A stretch of 64,000 bases of DNA from Candidatus Kaiserbacteria bacterium (GTDB lineage Bacteria > Patescibacteriota > Minisyncoccia > Phycocordibacterales > UBA918): NCBI GenBank assembly GCA_016699245.1, contig CP064968.1:379331-443330 (forward strand), read 5' to 3'. Both the position numbers and the translations under genes were made by a program. Positions 1 through 9,297 of the stretch are shown here, one piece after another. A model generated the notes under the pieces. It searched no databases. It was given only the letters and a program-made list of their open reading frames with translations, and was not told the origin of the DNA. Position 1 is the stretch's first letter. Each line of letters begins with the position of its first letter.

Positions 1-404
1 ATTCTAGTTCGTATCTCCCCTATCTTTTTTTCAGTAATAGCACCCGGCACTTCAAAAAATGCCTCATCGATTGAATACATTTCAATAGCACCACATTCTG
101 CTCTCAATGCACTCATCACTCGAGCAGAAATGTCTCGGTACAAATTGAAGTTTGATGAAAAAAGAGTAATCTTCTCTTTTTTGCATTGTTCCTTTATTTG
201 AAAAACTGGGACACCCATTGAAATGCCCATATCCTTTACTTCCTGCGAGCGCGCCACAATACAGCCGTCATTTGAAGACAGCACCGCCACCGGCTTCCCC
301 ACCAAATCCGGCCGAAAAAGCCGCTCACAAGAAACAAAAAAATTATTGCAATCCATCAACCCAAACATGCTACCCAGTATACCAAACCTCTATCACATCT
401 CATT

Positions 405-485
405 ATTGCCGACATCGTAAGTCGGCCAATCTAATCACAAGCGCGAGCAATATGTGCACATGGCCGACTTACGATGTCGGCAATA
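405..485. repeat. REP pair: two inverted copies of a REP hairpin (gccgac-N7-gtcggc, loop ttacgat/atcgtaa) upstream of the RAYT gene
   Basis: ttgccgacatcgtaagtcggcc at 408-427 and its reverse complement ggccgacttacgatgtcggcaa at 462-483; same unit recurs at 644, 1178, 1228, 8316 and 8349. Confidence 0.75.
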
Positions 486-504
486 TTTGATATTGTTAAT
501 TAAT

Positions 505-1170
505 ATGGATCTCTATCATGCTCTCAATAGAGGTGTCGATAAAAGGATTATTTTTCTTGATACTCAAGATTATGCGCGTTTTGTGCATGATATGTACGAG
601 TTCAATTCAACTCTCCCTGCAAATCACACTCGTTACAGCCAAATTGCCGACTTACGATGTCGGCAATTAGACGAAAGGCTTGTTCAGATTCATGGGTGGT
701 GTCTTATGCCTAATCACTATCACCTGCTCTTGAGTGAGTGCATAGAAGGTGGTATTTCACTATTTCTTCGAAAACTTAACGTGGGATACGCAAAATATTT
801 TAATGAACGATATAATCGTATCGGGACTTTATTCCAAGGCCGCACAAAAAAGATTTTAATTGACTCAGATGCTCATTTTCTTCATATTCTTAATTACATT
901 CATTTCAATCCACTCGACATGCAGGAAGGCACATCTGATTGGAGAATGAAAAAAATAGATAATGTCGATGCTGCAATAACGTATCTAAAATCATATCGCT
1001 GGAGTAGTTACCTCGACTACTGGGGTATTAAAAACTTCCCTTCGATTCTCACCACCTCATTATTCCAAGGTGTTTTCAATAATAACTACACGAGCCATGC
1101 AGAAAAATATCTTCGCAGTATATCCTTAGAAACAGATATTCAATCAATCAGACACCTTACATTTGAATAA
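505..1170 (+). CDS. REP-associated tyrosine transposase (RAYT; IS200/TnpA-like HUH enzyme)
   Basis: HUH motif LMPNHYHLLL. IS200-like C-terminal block NRIGTLFQGR...YIHFNP. Flanked on both sides by REP hairpin pairs. ATG at 505 chosen because the upstream part of the ORF is only the translation of a REP. Confidence 0.75.
   Translation: MDLYHALNRGVDKRIIFLDTQDYARFVHDMYEFNSTLPANHTRYSQIADLRCRQLDERLVQIHGWCLMPNHYHLLLSECIEGGISLFLRKLNVGYAKYFNERYNRIGTLFQGRTKKILIDSDAHFLHILNYIHFNPLDMQEGTSDWRMKKIDNVDAAITYLKSYRWSSYLDYWGIKNFPSILTTSLFQGVFNNNYTSHAEKYLRSISLETDIQSIRHLTFE
644..666. repeat. REP copy embedded in-frame inside the RAYT coding sequence
   Basis: ttgccgacttacgatgtcggcaa is translated as IADLRCRQ within the ORF. 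Same hairpin as the extragenic REPs. Confidence 0.6.
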
Positions 1171-1177
1171 AATTGTA

Positions 1178-1252
1178 TGGTCGACTTACGATGTCGACCA
1201 TACAAAAGCAATGAATAAATAGTAACTATGGTCGACATCGTAAGTCGACCAT
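1178..1252. repeat. REP pair (variant gtcgac-N7-gtcgac stems) downstream of RAYT
   Basis: tggtcgacttacgatgtcgacca at 1178-1200 and atggtcgacatcgtaagtcgaccat at 1228-1252 in inverted orientation. Confidence 0.7.
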
Positions 1253-1262
1253 GATGGAGTGA

Positions 1263-1721
1263 TTAAGAAATAAATTGGCGGACACTGCCTACTACTACGC
1301 CCCACACGAAGCAATCGTCGTGACCTTGGACAGTGATGGGCTGATAGGCTTCATTTTCTGAGATAAGTTCGTGCGTGTCGCCACGGGAGCGAAGGCGTTT
1401 TACCACCAGTTCCCCATACACCGCTGCCACCACAATAAGCCCATCCTTTGGGGTAATGGATCTATCTATCACAAGCACGTCACCCGAAAATATCCCCGCG
1501 CCTATCATTGAATCCCCTTCCACACGCACAAAAAAGGTCGATGCGGGGTGTCGCACGACTAAATCATTGATATCAAGCACCTTTTCAATCTGATCATCGC
1601 CCGGTGAAGGGAAGCCGGCCTGAGGACGGGAACTATACATAGAAAATTGCGCATCAGAAGATGCTACGCCACCGAGCACCTCTCCAGTGGCCTCGCGACT
1701 CTCGGATTTTTGATTTTGCAT
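1263..1721 (-). CDS. S24 family peptidase, UmuD/LexA C-terminal-domain-like (no HTH)
   Basis: VEGDSMIGAGIFSGDVLVIDRS...GELVVKRL matches the LexA/UmuD self-cleaving Ser-Lys dyad domain; no N-terminal DNA-binding domain. Confidence 0.6.
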   Translation of the reverse strand: MQNQKSESREATGEVLGGVASSDAQFSMYSSRPQAGFPSPGDDQIEKVLDINDLVVRHPASTFFVRVEGDSMIGAGIFSGDVLVIDRSITPKDGLIVVAAVYGELVVKRLRSRGDTHELISENEAYQPITVQGHDDCFVWGVVVGSVRQFIS

Positions 1722-2932
1722 TACACTATTGTAACACCCGTGAGGAGAGTATGTACTTCAAAGAGAAGTGCCATAACAGCAATAAGTCCGCTGGCATAGA
1801 CAATTTGGATTGGGTTTTGGCGACGCCACTCAATCACGATAGAAAGCATAAGTGCCAGAAACACAATGAGCGCAAGTGCGCCATACACCACCTGAAGCCA
1901 TTCACTGGGCTGGGTCATAAACTTTTCAAACAAAGAAGGGCTACTTGTATCAACTGAAGAAGGTGTATTGGGGTCGATGGTTGCCGGTACACCCTCACGT
2001 GAAGTAGTGGCAAGGTCGGTATACATCACCGTAGTACCATCATACGTGTATGAGGCAATCGTGGTGGAAGTACTCTCTTCCGCTTCAGTAATGGTGGTAG
2101 ATGCTTCAGGAGTAGTGTTTTCCATTACCAAAGTGCTCGATGCAGGGATTGCTGCCACCTCAATAGGCTGCGTTGCGGGCACCACCTTTATAGGAGGCGT
2201 GTTGGACGTTTCACCAAGAATATCAGTTTTAGGTGCTGGTGCTGGTGTCGGTGAAATGGCCTGTGCCACCACAGGCGGTGGAGCCACCACAGCGCTTGGC
2301 GTGCCAAAGAGTTGCACTACGAAAACTGTAGGCTCTCCCTCATAGGTACCTTTTGCAGTACCCACACCAATCTCATTGAAATTACCGTTCATAATATTGG
2401 CACGATGTGTCGGCGAATTCATCCATGCATCTACCACATCAGAAGAGTCAGTAAAATGCACTGCAAGATTTTCTCCCGCATGAATGAAATTGTATGACAC
2501 TTTATCAAACCAAAACCAAGGAGAGACTCCTGTGGGACTATAGTGTGCAAAATACCCATTCTTTGCCATGTCCTGCGCTTTGAGTTCTGCAGCGGCATCC
2601 AGTACATCACTGCGTGAAAGTCGTGAAAGAGAGTCTCCGCCACGTTCTTCATTAGTCAGATCAACTATCACTGCAGGAAGAATAGTAGAGACCATCCAGT
2701 CAGAACCAATCCAGACGAGCGCCTGAATATTTGCAATCGCAAACGAAAGAAGCACGAGCACAAGCATGATGCCCATCGATGCACGCTCAAGAAAGTCTGG
2801 CTTAAAATCATTTTTCTCATGCGGAATGAAATAATTTTTGAGATAGTCTTTTAACATTAATTTTATTATTTGCTCTTCACAGGTAAATATAACAAATTCC
2901 CTTCTCGAGCGTATATACTGTATTATAAGCAA
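1721..2932 (-). CDS. CAP (SCP/PR-1) domain-containing membrane protein with Thr/Pro-rich linker
   Basis: GYFAHYSPTG...HAGENLA...VDAWMNSPTHRANIM..NFNEIGVG is the CAP domain signature. N- and C-terminal hydrophobic segments present; start codon uncertain. Confidence 0.55.
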   Translation of the reverse strand: MLIIQYIRSRREFVIFTCEEQIIKLMLKDYLKNYFIPHEKNDFKPDFLERASMGIMLVLVLLSFAIANIQALVWIGSDWMVSTILPAVIVDLTNEERGGDSLSRLSRSDVLDAAAELKAQDMAKNGYFAHYSPTGVSPWFWFDKVSYNFIHAGENLAVHFTDSSDVVDAWMNSPTHRANIMNGNFNEIGVGTAKGTYEGEPTVFVVQLFGTPSAVVAPPPVVAQAISPTPAPAPKTDILGETSNTPPIKVVPATQPIEVAAIPASSTLVMENTTPEASTTITEAEESTSTTIASYTYDGTTVMYTDLATTSREGVPATIDPNTPSSVDTSSPSLFEKFMTQPSEWLQVVYGALALIVFLALMLSIVIEWRRQNPIQIVYASGLIAVMALLFEVHTLLTGVTIV

Positions 2933-2993
2933 ACCTTTTCGGGAGTGCTTTTGTATTAGCAGTGTTTTTTAGTTTTAACATAATAATTTTCTC

Positions 2994-3407
2994 ATGATGA
3001 AATATATTTATACAGCAATGATTACGCTTCTCCTTGTGGGAGCAGTCGTAGTACCCGGTGCGCAGGCAGCCACCACGTCAAACGAAGCGATGCTTGAACA
3101 AATCAAGGTACTCATGGCAAAGGTAGAGGAATTGCAAAAACAACTCTCTACTATCCGTGGCGAAGTAAAAAGTCTTATAAAAGATGGCCTCGAAGAGGGA
3201 ATGACTGACACAGACATCACAAAACTCCAAGAACTCCTTGCAACAGATCCAACAATTTACCCAGAGGGAAGGAAGACTGGCTATTTTGGCCCACTCACAA
3301 AGGAGGCTGTAATGCGTTTCCAAACACGTCATGGCCTTGAGGTCACTGGAAAAGTGAACGGTGAGACACGCGATATGCTTGAAGAGTATCTCCGTGAGGG
3401 GATTTAA
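2994..3407 (+). CDS. secreted coiled-coil protein with C-terminal peptidoglycan-binding domain (PG_binding_1-like)
   Basis: Signal peptide MMKYIYTAMITLLLVGAVVVPGAQA; TGYFGPLTKEAVMRFQTRHGLEVTGKVNGETRDML resembles a PG-binding repeat. Confidence 0.55.
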   Translation: MMKYIYTAMITLLLVGAVVVPGAQAATTSNEAMLEQIKVLMAKVEELQKQLSTIRGEVKSLIKDGLEEGMTDTDITKLQELLATDPTIYPEGRKTGYFGPLTKEAVMRFQTRHGLEVTGKVNGETRDMLEEYLREGI

Positions 3408-3510
3408 TGGCAAAGTACCAGAGGGACTTCTTAAGGCTCCCGGTATTGCAAAAAAGGTAGAAGATCGCTTCAATCTCCGTTGCGACAAGCACGAGGGAAG
3501 CGGTAAGGGA

Positions 3511-4101
3511 ATGGGTCCACTTTGCAAAAAGTGGAAGATGGAACACGGAGATGATGATCGTGATGACGATGTAGAGGACGAGGACGAAATGGATGATGAA
3601 GATGAAGACGAAATGGATGATGAAGATGAAGATGGTGAAGAATTTGATGTTGAAGTTGAAATAGAAGACGGTGAAACTACTGTAGAATTCACATTTGATG
3701 GTGAAGACTACGAGGTAACCGTAGATTCTACTGAACTTGATGAGGTTCTCGATACTGTCGCAGACGTTATTGACGATGGTGATGACGCAAGCGACCTCGA
3801 CGATGACCTTTCTGATGCTATTGAAGCAGAACTTGAAGATGCAGAAGACGACAGCGCAGAGAGTGACGCAGAAAAGGCTATCGAAGATGCGGGTGACGCG
3901 ATAGACGACGCTCGTGAAGCATCCGATGATGCAGACAACGAAGAAGCGGGAGACAAGGTAGATGACGCTGAAGATGTGCTTGAAGAAGCACTTGCTGCAC
4001 TTGAAGATGAAGACTATGAGGAAGCAAAGGACCTCGCAGAAGAAGCAGAAGAACTTGCTGATGATGCAATGGACATCCTTGACGATGAAGAGACTCTATA
4101 A
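3511..4101 (+). CDS. extremely acidic (Asp/Glu-rich) protein; start uncertain, may be fused to the upstream PG-binding gene by a frameshift
   Basis: Long D/E runs (DDDRDDDVEDEDEMDDEDEDEMDDEDEDGEE...). ORF frame opens at 3361 overlapping the upstream gene without an obvious RBS. Followed by a strong terminator. Confidence 0.45.
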   Translation: MGPLCKKWKMEHGDDDRDDDVEDEDEMDDEDEDEMDDEDEDGEEFDVEVEIEDGETTVEFTFDGEDYEVTVDSTELDEVLDTVADVIDDGDDASDLDDDLSDAIEAELEDAEDDSAESDAEKAIEDAGDAIDDAREASDDADNEEAGDKVDDAEDVLEEALAALEDEDYEEAKDLAEEAEELADDAMDILDDEETL

Positions 4102-4121
4102 TTTATTAACAGCGAGACACG

Positions 4122-4146
4122 AAAAAACCGCGAAGGCGGTTTTTTC
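4122..4146 (+). terminator. rho-independent terminator
   Basis: aaaaaaccgcgaaggcggttttttcgtg: GC stem plus T-run. Confidence 0.8.
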
Positions 4147-4182
4147 GTGTCAGTCATGTATAATACTTCTATAATCCTTTTC

Positions 4183-4694
4183 ATCATGACTCACACTATT
4201 TCATTCGTACGTATTGGTTTTTTAGGAGCACTTCTTGCACTCATCTTTATAGCAACGCCTATTCACGCATACTTCACCACTGCACAAAGCGCAGAAGCAC
4301 TGACTGGAGGTGTGCTTTTTACCATCGATTACTCTTTTGGCATGGCAAAGCATGATGTCTACCTTCCGTTCTTTGCACAAAATCAAAGTTTTGCGCCAAG
4401 TACGAGTACCGTTTCATACACCATCCTCGATGAAAATGATAAGGAAGTGAAAGGAAAGTTCTCTGCAATAGTTTTGAGCAATGCAACTCTCGGTACTAAT
4501 GGTATGTATAAAGTAAAGAAAGGTGGTGCGAAAAATTTACACTTGCAGTAGTATTTGTTCCAGAAACGGTGAATCCTGAAAAAACCTATCGTCTTCAAGT
4601 CACCAATCTCCCATTTAACTTCAACAACACACAGCAACTTCAACTCAATCCTTCAGAACTCAAGTACTACACGACAAAATCTATTGCGCTTTAA
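4183..4694 (+). pseudogene. secreted hypothetical protein, reading frame broken at an A5 run (4531-4535); continues in the -1 frame to 4694
   Basis: Frame 1 ends ...KKGGAKNLHLQ* at 4551, but frame 0 reads on without Met as ...FTLAVVFVPETVNPEKTYRLQVTNLPFNFNNTQQLQLNPSELKYYTTKSIAL* and ends just before a terminator. Confidence 0.45.
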
Positions 4695-4709
4695 AAGTAC
4701 GGTGGGAAT

Positions 4710-4748
4710 CCCCTGCAAAACCTTCGGTTTTGCAGGGGATTTATATTT
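4710..4748 (+). terminator. rho-independent terminator
   Basis: cccctgcaaaaccttcggttttgcagggg followed by atttatattt. Confidence 0.8.
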
Positions 4749-4773
4749 ACTATTCTCTATTCTCTTTTTTCTA

Positions 4774-6037
4774 TTATCTATTATCTATTATTTTGCACAC
4801 GCTATTCCCTGCCACAAATCCTGTTGTCCAACAAAGTTGGAGTGAGAATCCCCCTGAAGGGCGTGATACATCGAGCATATCGCCAACCAGGTACACGCTC
4901 GGATGCTTTTTAGATTGCATCGTACGTGTGTCTATCTCGCGCAAATCAACGCCACCATCAGAAACAATCGCCCAATCAAGTCCTTTAGTACCCGTGATGG
5001 TAAGCGGCATAGCCTTCATGCGCTCTATAAGCGCGTGACGCACCTCCCGGGTGACGCTGTGAGACTTTTGTACCTTTTGCTCTTCTGGAAACATCTCAAG
5101 CACTGCCTCAACAATTGCTTTTGACATCAGTTCGCTAAGTGCGTTTTCCAAAGTTTTATTAGAATGAGCTTGAAGAAGCGTAGTAACGCGTGTACGCAAT
5201 GCACCCACATCTTCATGTGGAAAAAGATCGATAGTTGCCATCACAGGACCAGTCGCAAGAAGCACCTTCACTTCCCGCGCAGTATTCAAAATAAGAGGTC
5301 CCGAAACACCAAAGTGCGTACAGAGTATGTTGCCTTCACGACGCACTTTTCTTGTACCAGAACGAAAAGTAATGGAGACATCGGTAAGTGTCGTGCCCGA
5401 AAGTTCCTTTATCCACGTTTCCTTCGCTACAAGTGGTACGAGATCTGGATTAGGTACTGCCACCGTGTGTCCGAGAGTCTCGAGCCACGGCATAGCATCG
5501 CCCGTAGAACCCGTCTCGGGACGTGAGGTGCCACCACTTGCAATAATGTATGACTGTGCAGAAAGTATGCCATTATCGGTAAGTACACCCACGACAACAC
5601 CCTCACGCATGTGTATTGAGCGCACAGGAGTCTCTGTGCGTATCTCTACACCCACTTCACGTACATACGCTTCCATCACTCGTGTCACATCACTCGCTTT
5701 CTCCGTATGAGGGAATGCGCGCTTTCTGTCTTCCACAATAAAGGGCAATCCACGTTTCAGGAAAAAGTCCACAGTATCCTGTGCTCCAAATTGTGAAAAT
5801 GGTGAAAAGAGGAAGGGTGCCGCATCGCCGTAGTGCGTGAGGAGCGTGCGAATATCAAACTCTACATTAGCAATATTGCAGCGACCACCGCCCGTGATTG
5901 AGAGTTTATTGCCCACCGTCGCATTCTTTCTAAAAGAAGCACACGAAAACCACGTGATGCAGCTTTCCCTGCCGCCATCATACCCGCAGGCCCTGCGCCC
6001 ACCACAATCACGTCCCATGTGTCATTGTTTGACATAA
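4774..6037 (-). pseudogene. NAD(P)/FAD-dependent oxidoreductase of the HI0933/YhiN (aminoacetone oxidase-like) family, frameshifted near 5934-5937
   Basis: N-terminus MSNNDTWDVIVVGAGPAGMMAAGKAASRGFRVLLLE from ATG at 6037 is in one frame. The rest (KNATVGNKLSITGGGRCNIAN...) is in another. A single missing A in ttagaaaga versus expected ttagaaaaga would restore VLLLEKNATVG. Confidence 0.7.
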
Positions 6038-6067
6038 CGGCGAAATAATAGCATAATCAACGTTCAA

Positions 6068-6790
6068 ATGAAAGAGAACGAGTTTCCAATGCGCCTTAAC
6101 AAGTTTTTGGCCGTCAAAGGGTTTGCCACACGCCGTGGCGCCGATACGCTTATTGAAAAGAAGCAGGTTTTTGTGAATGGTAAAATGGCTGTGCTAGGCC
6201 AGAAAGTTGCAGAGACCGACCGTGTGGAAATAAAGAACCACAAGCCGGTAGAGCACCGCTACGTACTCTACTACAAACCACGTGGAATTATTACCCACTC
6301 TCCAGCTCAAGGTGAAACTGATATTGCCTCAGACATTCTCACGCGTCACGGACTTACCGGACTCTTCCCTGTTGGCCGCCTCGACAAAGATTCCGAGGGG
6401 CTCATGGTACTCACTGACGACGGACGCATTACTGAACGCATACTCAATCCCGAAAAGAACCACGAGCGTGAATATGAGATAACAGTTGATAAACGTGTGA
6501 CACAGACATTTCTCAATGGTATGAGTAAGGGCGTGCGTATTGAAGGCTATATGACAAAACCGGCGCGCGCAGAGCGCGCGCCCCACTCTGAATACGTGTT
6601 CACCATCACCCTCACCGAAGGAAAGAAGCACCAGGTACGGCGCATGTGTGCAGCGCTTGGATACCAAGTCACTCAGTTAAAACGCACACGTATGCTTCAC
6701 TTTACTCTCAAGGCGCTCAAGCCTGGTGCAGTGTATGCTCTCAGAGCAAAAGAGATTCATTTCCTAAATGAATCTCTTGGCCTTCACTAG
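6068..6790 (+). CDS. rRNA pseudouridine synthase (RsuA/RluB family, S4 domain plus catalytic domain)
   Basis: S4-like N-terminus MRLNKFLAVKGFATRRGADTLIEKKQVFVNG; catalytic motif GRLDKDSEGLMVLTDDG; possible alternative start at 6089. Confidence 0.8.
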   Translation: MKENEFPMRLNKFLAVKGFATRRGADTLIEKKQVFVNGKMAVLGQKVAETDRVEIKNHKPVEHRYVLYYKPRGIITHSPAQGETDIASDILTRHGLTGLFPVGRLDKDSEGLMVLTDDGRITERILNPEKNHEREYEITVDKRVTQTFLNGMSKGVRIEGYMTKPARAERAPHSEYVFTITLTEGKKHQVRRMCAALGYQVTQLKRTRMLHFTLKALKPGAVYALRAKEIHFLNESLGLH

Positions 6791-7323
6791 GCTTCCTTTT
6801 TTGTAGTTTTCTTTGTGCGCGCTGACTTTACCACAAGTGCTTTTTCTGGCTCAAGACACATTTCGTGCTGATAGTCGTCACTGACATGTTTTATGGTGCC
6901 ATAAAAATAGAGATATGTGATGAGATTGGCAAGTGCAAAGCCTGCAAAGAGCATGTTTGCCTCAATCGAGTATTTTGTAGAATTAAAGACTATCTCGATA
7001 GTGGGCGCGATAATCGCAATTTCGATGAGGTATTTAAGGCTCACATGGCGCTTTTGCGCATAAGAGACAAGAATTTTGTATGCCTTCACGAGCACGATAG
7101 TAAATGCAATAGTATGGAGCAAATCAAGCTCGAGGAGGTTGCGCTCAGGTGCCGAAAGGATAGTGTGTATTGAGCCAGAGATATCCATGAAGCCAGCCAC
7201 CACCGTCATAATCCCTGTCACGAGCGAGGTAATCATATAAAAGACAAGCGTGAGTGCTACAAAGTATACATATCCTGAGACGATAAAATTCATCACCTCC
7301 GCAACAAGACTTTCACGTTTCAT
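6787..7323 (-). CDS. multi-pass membrane protein (PsiE-like?), function unknown
   Basis: Four or more hydrophobic helices; no recognisable catalytic motif. Confidence 0.4.
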   Translation of the reverse strand: MKRESLVAEVMNFIVSGYVYFVALTLVFYMITSLVTGIMTVVAGFMDISGSIHTILSAPERNLLELDLLHTIAFTIVLVKAYKILVSYAQKRHVSLKYLIEIAIIAPTIEIVFNSTKYSIEANMLFAGFALANLITYLYFYGTIKHVSDDYQHEMCLEPEKALVVKSARTKKTTKKEA

Positions 7324-7380
7324 AGTAACTCTATTTAAACACATGAGTGCATAAAAAAGTGCGACTTGTACACAATATAT

Positions 7381-7412
7381 AAAAACCGCGTGCCTATGGC
7401 ACGCGGTTTTAA
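7381..7412. terminator. bidirectional rho-independent terminator
   Basis: aaaaaccgcgtgcctatggcacgcggtttt with A-run before and T-run after; sits between two converging/tandem minus-strand genes. Confidence 0.75.
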
Positions 7413-7423
7413 TATTTGGTTGC

Positions 7424-7627
7424 TTATGCGAGCTTTACGTTCACAGCAGCAGGTCCCTTGTCTCCATCCTCAACATCGTATGAGACGGTATCACCCTCCT
7501 TAAGAGAGTCATACTGAAGTCCATCTACGAGTGATCGAGCGTGGAAGAAAAGATCCTTATCACCTCCCTCATCAGGAGTAATGAAACCAAATCCTCGGTC
7601 AGTAAGACGAGCGATTTTTCCCTTCAT
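7424..7627 (-). CDS. cold-shock protein (CspA family)
   Basis: MKGKIARLTDRGFGFITPDEGGDKDLFFHARSL...GDTVSYDVEDGDKGPAAVNVKLA: RNP1/RNP2 motifs of CSD. Confidence 0.9.
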   Translation of the reverse strand: MKGKIARLTDRGFGFITPDEGGDKDLFFHARSLVDGLQYDSLKEGDTVSYDVEDGDKGPAAVNVKLA

Positions 7628-7871
7628 TTGATTGAAATACTTCTTATCTTTTTAATCAAAACCGTTGTGCTACTGATCCGACTACCTCAGGCCTGTGTTT
7701 TGTTAATAACAATGCTACCATGTATCCAACTATTGTCTATAGCCCATAGTTTATCTATGTCTTGACAACTACTAAAAAGAGTGTACTATTTTAATTAATT
7801 AGTTGTCTTTTATGGCTCATTTTGGCGCCATTCGTACTTTTGAAGGTTTTTAGAGACAGTACTCAATACCT

Positions 7872-8258
7872 ATGTTTTCACATATCCACAGCCCTATTAT
7901 TCTTGTCGTGCTTTTCGTGGTTTTACTGTTTCCTGTACAAAGTGCCTCAGCCGAGGAGACATTCACCATGGGTACTTTTTACCAGACTGCGTCATTTAGA
8001 TGGAACAATGACAACTGGCTTCTCTACTCACAGCCTCGAGTACACACCTTCACCATGCGCGATGATGGCAGTGCATTTGGTCTAACGGAAACAGGTATTC
8101 CTTTTGTGCAATATAATATCGAAAACACTCTCGGCATGCGCATTCAACGCTTTGAAATAGAGGACCACTATCACTACGTCATTGGAGGTGAAGTGGTATA
8201 CACCATCAAAGACTTTTCTGCAGAACTCGCTCAAGCCTACGAAGCCCGTCCTGTTTAG
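7872..8258 (+). CDS. secreted hypothetical protein
   Basis: Signal peptide IILVVLFVVLLFPVQSASA; no known domain recognised. Confidence 0.45.
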   Translation: MFSHIHSPIILVVLFVVLLFPVQSASAEETFTMGTFYQTASFRWNNDNWLLYSQPRVHTFTMRDDGSAFGLTETGIPFVQYNIENTLGMRIQRFEIEDHYHYVIGGEVVYTIKDFSAELAQAYEARPV

Positions 8259-8310
8259 AAAAACAGCCGTCCCCCTACAAGGCTAGCTGTTTTCAGTCAT
8301 TCCCTAATTC

Positions 8311-8372
8311 ATTATTGCCGACATCGTAAGTCGGCAATAAATATAAACGGCCGACTTACGATGTCGGCCGTT
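8311..8372. repeat. REP pair, same family as those flanking the RAYT gene
   Basis: cattattgccgacatcgtaagtcggcaa at 8311-8338 (identical to 401-427, flank included) and ggccgacttacgatgtcggccg at 8349-8370. Confidence 0.75.
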
Positions 8373-8380
8373 TATTATTT

Positions 8381-8926
8381 TTATTGTGCTGATTCCATGA
8401 GGTAGGCGAGCATGGTGTCTGCATCACTTACTGCAAATGGGTCTGATCCGAAGTTATCTGACTTCCCTTCCTCGCTGAAGACTTTCTTAATCTCGCCATT
8501 ATCAACAAACATACTGTATCTCCATGAGCGGTTACCAAAGCCAAGATCTTCCTTTTTTACCAACATCCCCATCTTTTCGGTAAACTCAGTATTCCCATCA
8601 GGAATAAACTGTACGTTCTTTACCCCCTGTGCGCGACCCCACTCGTACATGACAAATGGATCATTCACGCTGAGGCAATACACCGCATCGACGCCGAGTG
8701 CCTTAAGTTCTTCAAACTTCGCTTCGTATCCAGGAAGGTGTGTTGACGAGCAGGTAGGTGTGTATGCGCCAGGAAGCGCGAAAACAATCACTTTCTTTCC
8801 CATAAAAATCTCATCGGTACTGAGTGTTCCCCATTCTGCATCAATAGCAGAACAAACGCCGGTCGCTACTTCATGCGGTACGCGAATCTTAAAGGTTACC
8901 TGTGGTACCTGTGTTGGTGTTTCCAT
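8381..8926 (-). CDS. peroxiredoxin (Prx5-like redoxin)
   Basis: KKVIVFALPGAYTPTCSSTHLPGYEAKFEELKALGVD: PGAxTPxC peroxidatic cysteine motif. Confidence 0.85.
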   Translation of the reverse strand: METPTQVPQVTFKIRVPHEVATGVCSAIDAEWGTLSTDEIFMGKKVIVFALPGAYTPTCSSTHLPGYEAKFEELKALGVDAVYCLSVNDPFVMYEWGRAQGVKNVQFIPDGNTEFTEKMGMLVKKEDLGFGNRSWRYSMFVDNGEIKKVFSEEGKSDNFGSDPFAVSDADTMLAYLMESAQ

Positions 8927-8990
8927 AATAATATATATTAACTAAAAATAGTGAACACACAGTATACTCCACTTTTTTTATGTATGAAAA

Positions 8991-9297
8991 TTATTGTATG
9001 GTATGGCTGTATAGTTTCTCCGTAATGAGTGCTACACATCGCTTTGGATCTTCGTGGAAAAAGTCCACAAGGTCGGGTTCATCTTTAAAGAGTTTCTGGA
9101 GACATCTCCATACGCTTGAGTCCACACACCTCCGCCTTGTTCAAATCTTCATTGAATTCTTTTGGATACTTTGCGAGATATCTCTTGATAAGTAACAATT
9201 GAATTGTATTTGACTCTTCAAGAGTAAGGTGCGGATATTCACCCATAGACCCTGGAATTGTTTTCGCTTCTGGTACTCCTTCAGGTGAATGTTTCAT
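8991..9297 (-). pseudogene. hypothetical protein with apparent homopolymer frameshift near 9083-9090 (cttt/aaa run)
   Basis: ORF ...LKRMEMSPETL* stops at 9085. The next frame reads on as KDEPDLVDFFHEDPKRCVALITEKLYSHTIQ* to 8991. Removing one T from cttt would fuse them. Confidence 0.35.

Follow-up and report, generated by a model that had tools for sequence, protein, structure and literature searches.

The window analysed here, a stretch of 64,000 nucleotides from a Candidatus Kaiserbacteria bacterium (contig CP064968.1), contains near its left end a gene related to the REP-associated tyrosine transposases (RAYTs), and short palindromes of the repetitive extragenic palindrome (REP) type are found before this gene, after it and in-frame within its coding sequence. 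The gene is a domesticated, vertically inherited Y1/HUH enzyme of the RAYT superfamily, nearest to TnpAY1 subclass 2.1. For its internal copy we consider it probable that an ancient REP has been tolerated in a permissive loop of the enzyme, where continuing replacement, conversion and inversion keep it a palindrome that matches those on either side. An earlier note on this DNA had drawn attention to the arrangement and had offered two origins for the internal copy, insertion into this one gene or service as the ancestral template, neither of which is borne out by the comparisons described below.

The age of the internal copy is seen in a set of 80 homologous DNA loci (referred to by L and a number), all from Patescibacteria and picked by protein similarity. 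In this set, 67 of the 80 loci carry a palindrome at the homologous internal site, with its centre always at codon position 1, where a palindrome is taken to have a T(ACG/CGT/CGG/CCG)A centre and 6 or more of the 10 flanking pairs formed. At the protein level, homologues at 60-86% identity show no gap opposite the hairpin-encoded peptide IADLRCRQ, and have instead M-x-D-[LIFV]-[RVG]-x-R-x at this place. The presence of the palindrome at an equal codon position and phase in homologues of 55-85% identity indicates that it is an ancestral feature of the DNA of the whole family. Perfect stems of at least 9 bp occur at 4.55 per kb in the interval around the internal site, as against 0.027 elsewhere in the coding sequence and 0.233 in the far flanks, which makes them about 170 times as dense here as in the remaining coding sequence. 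Because the hairpin calls relied on the conserved centre, the covariation set of the 67 qualifying loci carries some ascertainment bias; in the alignment of these sequences, 90% of the cells are paired, where shuffles give 64% and slid partners no more than 44% (the covariation score being 0.631 vs 0.166), and changes on both sides are seen in 10 of the 12 stem pairs. Among the 97 cells that are not Watson-Crick, G·U is found in 17, no more than chance would give, so that the complementarity is held at the level of the DNA and not by pairing in RNA.

The protein encoded by the open reading frame (ORF) at 505-1170 is identical to QQR65280.1, encoded on a contig of 1.05 Mb and annotated as 'transposase [Candidatus Kaiserbacteria bacterium]', and matches the Pfam family Y1_Tnp (PF01797) over residues 53-113 (27.1 bits, cut-off 23, E = 5.1e-6). 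Its score against the NCBIfam model REP_Tyr_transpos (NF047646) is 38.4 bits, under the cut-off of 80, and by this measure it is related to the curated RAYT equivalog without being a member of it. In an alignment of 44 homologous protein sequences, H71-Y72-H73 and the candidate catalytic tyrosine Y131 show no variation, and Y131 is placed on helix 122-133 of an AlphaFold model of the 221-residue protein (predicted local distance difference test score, pLDDT, of 81). The top Foldseek match of this model is 4er8_A, the Escherichia coli RAYT bound to a REP hairpin (E = 3.7e-6; target-normalised TM-score 0.66), followed by the TnpA proteins of ISDra2 and IS608 (E ~3e-4). A profile sequence search of the PDB with the same protein gave no match, so that the kinship to the RAYT structure is seen by fold alone. 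No helix-turn-helix (HTH) or DnaA_C domain was detected in a Pfam scan of the protein. The product is thus a Y1/HUH protein of the RAYT type, as the earlier note had proposed from its motifs, and both its HUH motif and its putative catalytic tyrosine are intact; 2-3 divergent RAYT paralogues are present in some genomes.

In the AlphaFold model, the residues of the internal hairpin (47-54) lie within a coil (33-59) that follows helix 20-32 and precedes strand 60-67, at a pLDDT of ~53, and this coil is the part of the model with the lowest pLDDT apart from the C-terminal tail. The peptides found at this site in other loci, such as MVDLRSRP, MADIVSRP and MFDLRSRT, are unrelated between loci (for example MFDLRSRTF, YRDFVNPDI and ILDLRSPEL); their second and last residues covary in the manner of stem bases (A..P/Q, V..P, S..S, F..T), and the exchange of DLR for DIV or DFV among homologues corresponds to the loop being read on the opposite strand. 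Variation of other kinds has also been seen in individual loci. In one subclade (L001 5136-5166, L004 5134-5168, L006, L045, L052, L055, L062) the central triplet ACG/CGT is replaced by CGG/CCG, giving peptides of the form ...DVGRR... or ...DVRRQ..., and the change is common to the promoter-proximal and internal copies within a locus. At ~5140-5200 of L074 the hairpin-encoded peptide is tandemly duplicated (MSDFSMSDFANRS) and the stem is decayed, and at 4949-5000 of L058 two head-to-head upstream hairpins form a 48-nt double palindrome.

The internal (I) hairpin belongs with an upstream (U) and a downstream (D) hairpin, and all three are present in 40 of the 70 loci that were parsed, with a matching upstream hairpin in 54 and a matching downstream hairpin in 57. 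The hairpin consensus, AT(G)nnnGA(C/T)(T)-TACGA-(A)(G/A)TCnnn(C)AT, is a near-perfect palindrome of 25-27 nt, in which AT at ±11-12, G/C at ±6, A/T at ±5 and the TACGA centre are conserved. Over 9-nt arms, the internal copy is 0.94 identical to the flanking copies of its own locus, compared with 0.54 between the internal copies of different loci, and 31 distinct arms are found among 47 internal copies. The internal copy is an old feature shared by the family, whose arms have changed along with those of the flanking hairpins. Across loci the loop is mostly CGT in U (36:13), mostly ACG in D (32:18) and evenly divided in I (21:21).

In the window itself, the 19-nt REP core GCCGACTTACGATGTCGGC is matched exactly by both upstream copies, the internal copy and both members of a distant pair, and a GTCGAC...GTCGAC variant with two mutually compensating mismatches is found in the two downstream copies (Table 1). 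These make 7 core matches where 0.00 are expected (none was found in 100 shuffles), and a looser 15-nt core recovers the identical 7 sites. The full window hairpin can be written as ATTGCCGAC-TTACGAT-GTCGGCAAT. The internal copy is a perfect palindrome, aattgccgac-ttacgat-gtcggcaatt, read as I47-A-D-L-R-C-R-Q-L55, which folds as single-stranded DNA at -10.6 kcal/mol (z = -6.3). The upstream pair (region 399-490; -32.5 kcal/mol, z = -9.5) and the downstream pair (region 1170-1258; -29.2 kcal/mol, z = -11.1) each fold as one long hairpin of the type formed by REP doublets (REPINs), and the distant pair at 8312-8375 forms two hairpins apart from each other, with a combined energy of -26.2 kcal/mol. 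At the U and D sites, where the window has REPIN-type pairs, a single hairpin is found in most other loci. With small corrections of coordinates, these results agree with what the earlier note had described in the window, namely inverted pairs bracketing the gene, a copy in-frame within it, a downstream pair with a variant stem, and a third pair with the same left flank; the sequence 'cattattgcc' is indeed identical at 401-410 and 8310-8319, and mostly forms part of the extended stem ATTGCCGAC.

The upstream hairpin has a consistent relation to what appears to be the promoter of the gene, gene starts and promoters being deduced here from sequence alone. In 49 loci a -10 box, which is TATACT in 20 of them and TATAAT in 6, follows the end of the U hairpin at a distance of -3 to +7 nt, and between the 3' end of this box and the ATG there are 6-8 nt in 47 of the 49; matches at five or more of the six positions are found in 61% of loci, compared with 1.4% of control positions. 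This short distance from the -10 box to the ATG suggests a leaderless transcript, and the RAYT-like transcript is probably leaderless or nearly so. The U hairpin would then fill the spacer and the -35 region of the gene's own promoter and lie outside the transcript, as is probable from its placement, and because of this position at the promoter it probably doubles as an autoregulatory site. The corresponding box of the window is not listed in a generic promoter scan of the window. No Shine-Dalgarno sequence is visible at the 49 homologous loci (e.g. L007, L012, L018, L032, L060) or at 488-504 of the window. The idea that a -10 box is part of every REP unit was rejected, as such a box stands beside 4 of 10 upstream copies but on none of 148 orphan sides, and beside no internal or downstream copy. 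At the other end of the gene, the D hairpin abuts or overlaps the stop codon, with a TGA stop lying within the stem in 14 loci.

The gene itself has stayed in place. Its neighbours in the window are a umuC-like gene upstream and a umuD-like gene downstream, and a first synteny group with these neighbours is made up of the window, L001-L005, L008, L017, L081 and L082; the umuC-like neighbour is common to the window, L001, L004, L005, L008 and L017, and the umuD-like neighbour to the window, L001-L005, L017, L081 and L082. A second group consists of 17-19 loci beside rpiB, GAPDH, rpe and tkt, where the identity between RAYT-like proteins follows that between the GAPDH proteins encoded beside them (rho = 0.67; none of 2000 Mantel permutations gave so high a value). 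These patterns of sequence and gene order indicate that the RAYT-like gene is inherited vertically at a fixed position and is not moving. An active insertion sequence or phage cargo was ruled out by the conserved synteny together with a search of viral contigs in which no relatives of the gene were found.

While the gene is fixed, the hairpins at its sites have changed. The syntenic orthologues of the second group bear more than 8 different arm sequences, and the same can be followed over a short distance by comparing the window with L081, which is ~90% identical to it. In L081 the U pair has the arm ATGAGCGAC, where the window has ATTGCCGAC and ATGGCCGAC, and the D pair has ATTGCCGAC with flipped loops, where that of the window has ATGGTCGAC; the internal copy of L081 has two uncompensated G>A changes. 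The internal copy has therefore decayed in L081 while the flanking copies were replaced, which suggests that it behaves as one REP among others. Where loci have identical arms, the orientation of the loop is random (for the internal copy, 22 the same and 22 different), even when the proteins are 83-89% identical. As ACG and CGT have no position in common, the change is one of inversion or replacement and not of point mutation. Very recent flips of the loop were not seen in ten clusters at 90% protein identity, except for one doubtful case (P0142).

Evidence for a wider REP family comes from copies away from the RAYT gene, where copy number was drawn from the locus flanks and from a metagenome sample. 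In a metagenome scan with ATGNNCGACTTACGAWGTCGNNCAT, 80 stretches were analysed of at least 120, and a hairpin was classed as orphan if no RAYT HUH motif occurred within 800 nt of it. The matches listed contain 105 hairpins, of which 88 have complementary NN pairs; 31 are at RAYT genes, 37 are orphan and 37 are unclassifiable. The dispersed family that the earlier note had expected is thus present, both in the pair 7 kb away in the window and in the 37 of 68 classifiable metagenome copies, among the matches listed, that lie away from a RAYT gene. Among the same matches, 24 of the 37 orphan copies are in-frame in ORFs of at least 150 residues, and when ten of these ORFs were compared with Pfam each could be recognised as a gene: PurL, an AMP-binding enzyme, UvrA, PheT, threonine synthase (ThrC), adenylosuccinate lyase (PurB), two proteins of the beta-lactamase fold, MiaA and a UmuC-like polymerase. 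One orphan copy is a clean insertion of 9 residues (27 nt) relative to a homologue. Orthologous pairs have been found with different arms at an equal site (L083/L108, L090/L118, L100/L117) and with a flipped loop at an equal site (L086/L091, L123/L143). Since orthologous copies in housekeeping genes also change their arms in place, persistence at a fixed codon while the arms change is general to this REP family and not specific to the copy in the RAYT gene.

Further observations concern these dispersed copies. An IscS-like gene also has an in-frame palindrome of 25-27 nt, and examples of host genes in the set L083-L162 are L086:3650-6604, L146:2652-4598, L147:6966-8795, L089:8332-9810 and L103:3504-4985. 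The palindromes in housekeeping genes are translated in two or more frames, as ...MNDLRSRS... or ...[YN][EV]RLTKS[FN]I..., and orphan hairpins of differing arm families are clustered side by side at L004 8142-8195, L057 7141-7264 and L036 5769-5828, in arrays resembling bacterial interspersed mosaic elements (BIMEs).

The RAYT-like gene is antisense, in ~10 related genomes, between the umuD-like and umuC-like genes (as at L081 1601-4219), splitting the usual umuDC operon; the L081 orthologue of the umuC-like gene is annotated as PF00817 IMS / IMS_C. On the minus strand at 376-429 of the window, the left upstream REP overlaps the promoter-like hexamers TTGGCC-16-AATAAT and ATGAGA-16-TATACT, which face the umuC-like gene, and from these motifs the upstream REPIN between the divergent genes could touch the promoters of both. 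At 1173-1252 on the minus strand, both downstream REPs resemble intrinsic terminators, lying just past the stop codon of the umuD-like gene with the stem followed by TTTTATTCAA, and this placement might uncouple the umuD-like from the umuC-like gene. The downstream REPs of the window are terminator-like on the minus strand only, and generic intrinsic termination by D hairpins was rejected, no conserved T-run being found after them across loci.

Table 1. The RAYT-like gene, its REP copies and its neighbours in the window, with the position and strand of each 19-nt REP core.
Feature	Position	Strand	REP core	Remarks
umuC-like Y-family DNA polymerase (IMS), 5' part	1..356	-		Divergent from RAYT-like gene; ATG at 356
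Upstream REP, left copy	401..428	-	408-426(-)	Loop ATCGTAA on + strand
Upstream REP, right promoter-proximal copy	455..484	+	463-481(+)	Loop TTACGAT; exact core match
Extended -10-like box TGaTATTGT	488..496	+		8 nt before ATG; read from sequence
RAYT-like Y1/HUH gene	505..1170	+		221 aa; Pfam PF01797
Internal in-frame REP, 27-nt palindrome	642..668	+	646-664(+)	10-bp stem; loop TTACGAT; encodes I47-L55
HUH motif codons H71-Y72-H73 (in NHYHLLL)	715..723	+		H71 and H73 invariant in alignment
Candidate catalytic tyrosine Y131 (in YIHFNP)	895..897	+		Y131, H133 and N135 invariant in alignment
Downstream REP, left copy	1173..1205	+	1180-1198(+), variant	Variant stem ATGGTCGAC; loop TTACGAT; begins 3 nt past stop codon
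Downstream REP, right copy	1228..1252	-	1231-1249(-), variant	Variant stem; loop ATCGTAA on + strand; pairs REPIN-style with 1173-1205
umuD-like S24 peptidase	1263..1721	-		Convergent with RAYT-like gene; Pfam Peptidase_S24, E = 8.6e-30
Dispersed REP pair between convergent genes	8312..8375	.	8317-8335(-); 8350-8368(+)	8312-8340 stem TTATTGCCGAC; 8343-8375 stem ATAAACGGCCGAC

In the mechanism that we propose, the cognate site of the enzyme would be a palindrome present at three places, before the -10 box of a leaderless promoter, in-frame within a disordered surface loop and abutting the stop codon. The internal copy would have begun as an ancient REP insertion between helix A and the strand pair bearing the HUH motif, and would have been tolerated because the unit is 27 nt (9 codons) long and open in at least two of three frames, and because the loop accepts any sequence. 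All REP copies, including the internal one and those in housekeeping genes, would be repeatedly replaced or converted and inverted in place, and the internal copy would remain undecayed because this ongoing replacement keeps the copies matched to the current cognate hairpin of the enzyme. By analogy with E. coli TnpA_REP and IS608 TnpA, the enzyme would bind its sites as single-stranded DNA hairpins and would itself drive their turnover, rather than general recombination or template switching, and the promoter copy, possibly aided by the internal copy ~180 bp downstream, may repress the gene.

Several points weigh against this explanation. For binding, cleavage and the strand used, it borrows from E. 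coli TnpA_REP and IS608, and a perfect palindrome in DNA would also suit a dimeric binder of double-stranded DNA. Canonical REP features are missing, as the conserved GT[AG]G foot was not found in the position frequencies of the hairpins (53 U, 47 I and 57 D), and the NF047646 score is under its cut-off. About 13 of the 80 loci are without the internal hairpin yet have flanking ones (e.g. L022, L034, L035), which makes the internal copy dispensable. Between the window and L081, the internal hairpin differs by 2 uncompensated changes in 25 nt, which is about the average divergence and thus gives no sign of protection in the short term. The spacing from U to I (161-251 nt) has no 10-11-bp periodicity (Rayleigh p = 0.3-0.6). 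Finally, the density of dispersed copies is low, as the far flanks, 559 kb in all, hold 21 hairpins of the family type, or ~1 per 27 kb.

A stronger form of the proposal, in which the enzyme continuously overwrites and flips every 27-nt hairpin in place, including those in essential genes and in its own coding sequence, must be considered doubtful. If it were true, REP dissemination in these reduced genomes would be mainly a matter of site-for-site replacement and not of transposition to new sites, and the hairpin within the gene would be a specificity tag matching the enzyme to its sites, with a 9-residue surface peptide that is swapped together with the arms and loop.

Another explanation of the conserved internal position, which we regard as unlikely, is that the internal hairpin is a selected regulatory site and forms with the promoter copy a two-site operator, at which the enzyme or an extruded cruciform blocks initiation and early elongation, keeping a dangerous nuclease scarce. 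The internal operators galOI and lacO2 offer a comparison for such an arrangement. An operator of this kind would account for the upstream hairpin abutting the leaderless -10 box, which is specific to RAYT genes, for the constant placement of the internal copy 144-174 nt into the transcript, and for an arm identity that is highest between U and I (9.5/10 vs 9.0 for I-D). It would likewise fit L001, where the CGG loop variant is confined to the proximal upstream and internal copies and is missing from the other flanking REPs, and the retention of the internal position across the clade. However, copies in housekeeping genes are equally well kept at orthologous positions without such a role, the internal hairpin is gone in the ~13 of 80 loci mentioned above, which retain U and D, and its decay in L081, the nearest relative, is uncompensated. 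The lack of helical phasing in the spacing from U to I gives no backing for a looped two-operator repression complex, and DNA looping between these sites was rejected on this ground.

That the palindromes are double-stranded sites of a dimeric protein, either through the C-terminal domain of the enzyme itself or through an unrelated regulator, with the covariation reflecting symmetric half-sites, is very improbable. The strict Watson-Crick complementarity without an excess of G·U would fit a symmetric operator equally, the upstream copy is in an operator position at the promoter, and HTH-like C-terminal domains have been described in some subclass 2.1 proteins (PMC6006769). Against this, arm positions 7-10 vary among close orthologues far faster than the usual drift of a protein-DNA code (31 variants, with a swap at ~90% identity), the asymmetric central triplet flips freely, the protein resembles in its core fold enzymes whose crystal structures contain DNA hairpins, a Pfam scan of its 221 residues detected no HTH domain, and the copies in housekeeping genes are without a plausible operator role.

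It is more improbable again that the internal and downstream hairpins are mRNA stem-loops for pausing, stability or termination and that their likeness to the upstream copy is incidental. Both are transcribed, the downstream hairpins stand at the 3' end as stabilising stem-loops do, and REPs act as RNA elements in other bacteria (PMC3733652). However, the upstream copy, which would lie before the transcription start, is equally conserved, G·U pairs are not enriched, free inversion would alter the loop sequence on the transcribed strand, there is no general T-run after the downstream hairpins, and no Rfam match was found in 1-9000 of the window. Structure at the RNA level was rejected on the share of G·U, the presumably untranscribed upstream copy and this lack of an Rfam match.

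The two origins suggested by the earlier note, a recent in-frame REP insertion in this RAYT gene or an internal copy that is the master template of the genome, can hardly be credited: the internal core does not differ from the upstream and distant ones of the window, and REP units of this family are able to enter in-frame as 27-nt units, but an insertion peculiar to this gene is ruled out by the protein alignment and the DNA of the 80 loci, with the palindrome at equal codon and phase in homologues down to 55% identity, and a master template is contradicted by L081, whose internal copy has decayed beside intact flanking REPs of other arm types.

We know of no case in which the action of a RAYT on REPs in vivo has been resolved, or of a full REP transposition cycle that has been demonstrated. 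For this question the Patescibacteria clade, which consists of tiny groundwater bacteria, provides a compact natural system, with one small gene, three fixed copies of its site, very few other copies and many sequenced syntenic orthologues. Comparative data allow the exchange of arms and the inversion of loops at fixed sites to be followed directly, so that the upkeep of REPs by replacement or conversion in place can be put to the test. The findings also extend REP/RAYT systems to the Candidate Phyla Radiation and to a TnpAY1 subclass reported without REPs, offer the promoter hairpin of a leaderless transcript as a concrete candidate for RAYT autoregulation, and indicate that streamlined genomes tolerate a 9-codon palindromic cassette in genes such as uvrA, pheT, purL and thrC.

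The closest known systems are the RAYT/TnpA_REP enzymes with their REPs and REPINs, sometimes called 'REPtrons', which include YafM of E. coli and enzymes of Pseudomonas and were reportedly described by Nunvar in 2010, Bertels & Rainey in 2011, and Ton-Hoang and Messing in 2012, the last with PDB 4ER8. The system described here is like these in its Y1/HUH fold, its HUH and Y...NP motifs, the flanking of the gene by its own palindromic repeat, partly as inverted pairs of the REPIN type, and the possession by each paralogue of its own arm family. It also shares the fixed chromosomal position, vertical inheritance and low copy number that mark domestication (Bertels 2017). Unlike them, it is found in Patescibacteria, scores 38 bits where the NCBIfam RAYT equivalog has a cut-off of 80, has one copy fixed in-frame and one at the promoter, and uses a hairpin without the GT[AG]G foot that is a near-perfect palindrome of 10-13 bp with a conserved T-ACG-A / T-CGT-A centre. 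Its dispersed copies are very few compared with those of classical REP families, and many of them are inside genes.

In-frame REPs within tnpA_REP have been reported for TnpAY1 subclass 2.4, which has the motifs NH[IFV]H / WQ / YIxNNP and is found in Cyanobacteria and Bacteroidetes (Quentin 2018, PMC6006769). As in that subclass, the frame contains REPs of the family belonging to the gene and stays open across them, in a peripheral region judged tolerant, and this precedent, together with the in-frame copies of the present family in many housekeeping genes, weakens the earlier claim that the arrangement is unusual. The gene described here does not belong to subclass 2.4, as its motifs are NHYH / FQ / YIHFNP and it has a single 27-nt unit at one homologous codon position upstream of the HUH motif (residues 47-55, as against 71-73). 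By inspection of motifs only, it is like subclass 2.1, which corresponds to Bertels group 1 and the 'TIRYT' group (Di Nocera 2013), having NHYH, LFQGR, YIHFNP and RWSSY, where the subclass is described by NH[YF]H, FQ, Y[IV]HLNP, an SS tail and ~238 aa (PMC6006769 Table 1); the length of ~220-240 aa and the C-terminal extension agree as well. Subclass 2.1 has been reported without nearby REP-like sequences, and with only terminal inverted repeats GGGG[AT][CG]A[CG] (PMC6006769), whereas here hairpins flank most loci and no HTH/DnaA_C domain was detected in the 221-residue protein.

The TnpA proteins of the IS200/IS605 family (IS608, ISDra2, IS200) share the catalytic fold and the flanking of the gene by hairpins. 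In IS200, the left-end hairpin also interferes with transposase expression. The present system differs from this family in that there is no sign, among the loci compared, of multi-copy near-identical elements, synteny is conserved and paralogues are divergent, the motif is Y...NP and not Y...Q, and the palindromes are perfect and of variable orientation, unlike the imperfect subterminal one-strand hairpins of the family. A further parallel is provided by the Rickettsia palindromic elements (RPEs), which Ogata reportedly described in 2000 as elements of ~100-150 bp without an associated RAYT. The present repeats are like RPEs in being short palindromes in-frame in housekeeping genes, including genes of DNA repair, and in being retained in orthologues, and differ in that the 27-nt unit is linked to a RAYT-like gene and that both the arms and the direction of the loop vary between copies at orthologous sites. 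Intragenic REPs as such were already known in general (Di Nocera 2013, PMC3733652). Within the literature searched, what is new in the present system is the host clade, the triple placement of the hairpin at the promoter, in-frame and at the stop codon, the T-ACG-A palindrome, and the comparative evidence for replacement and flipping in place.

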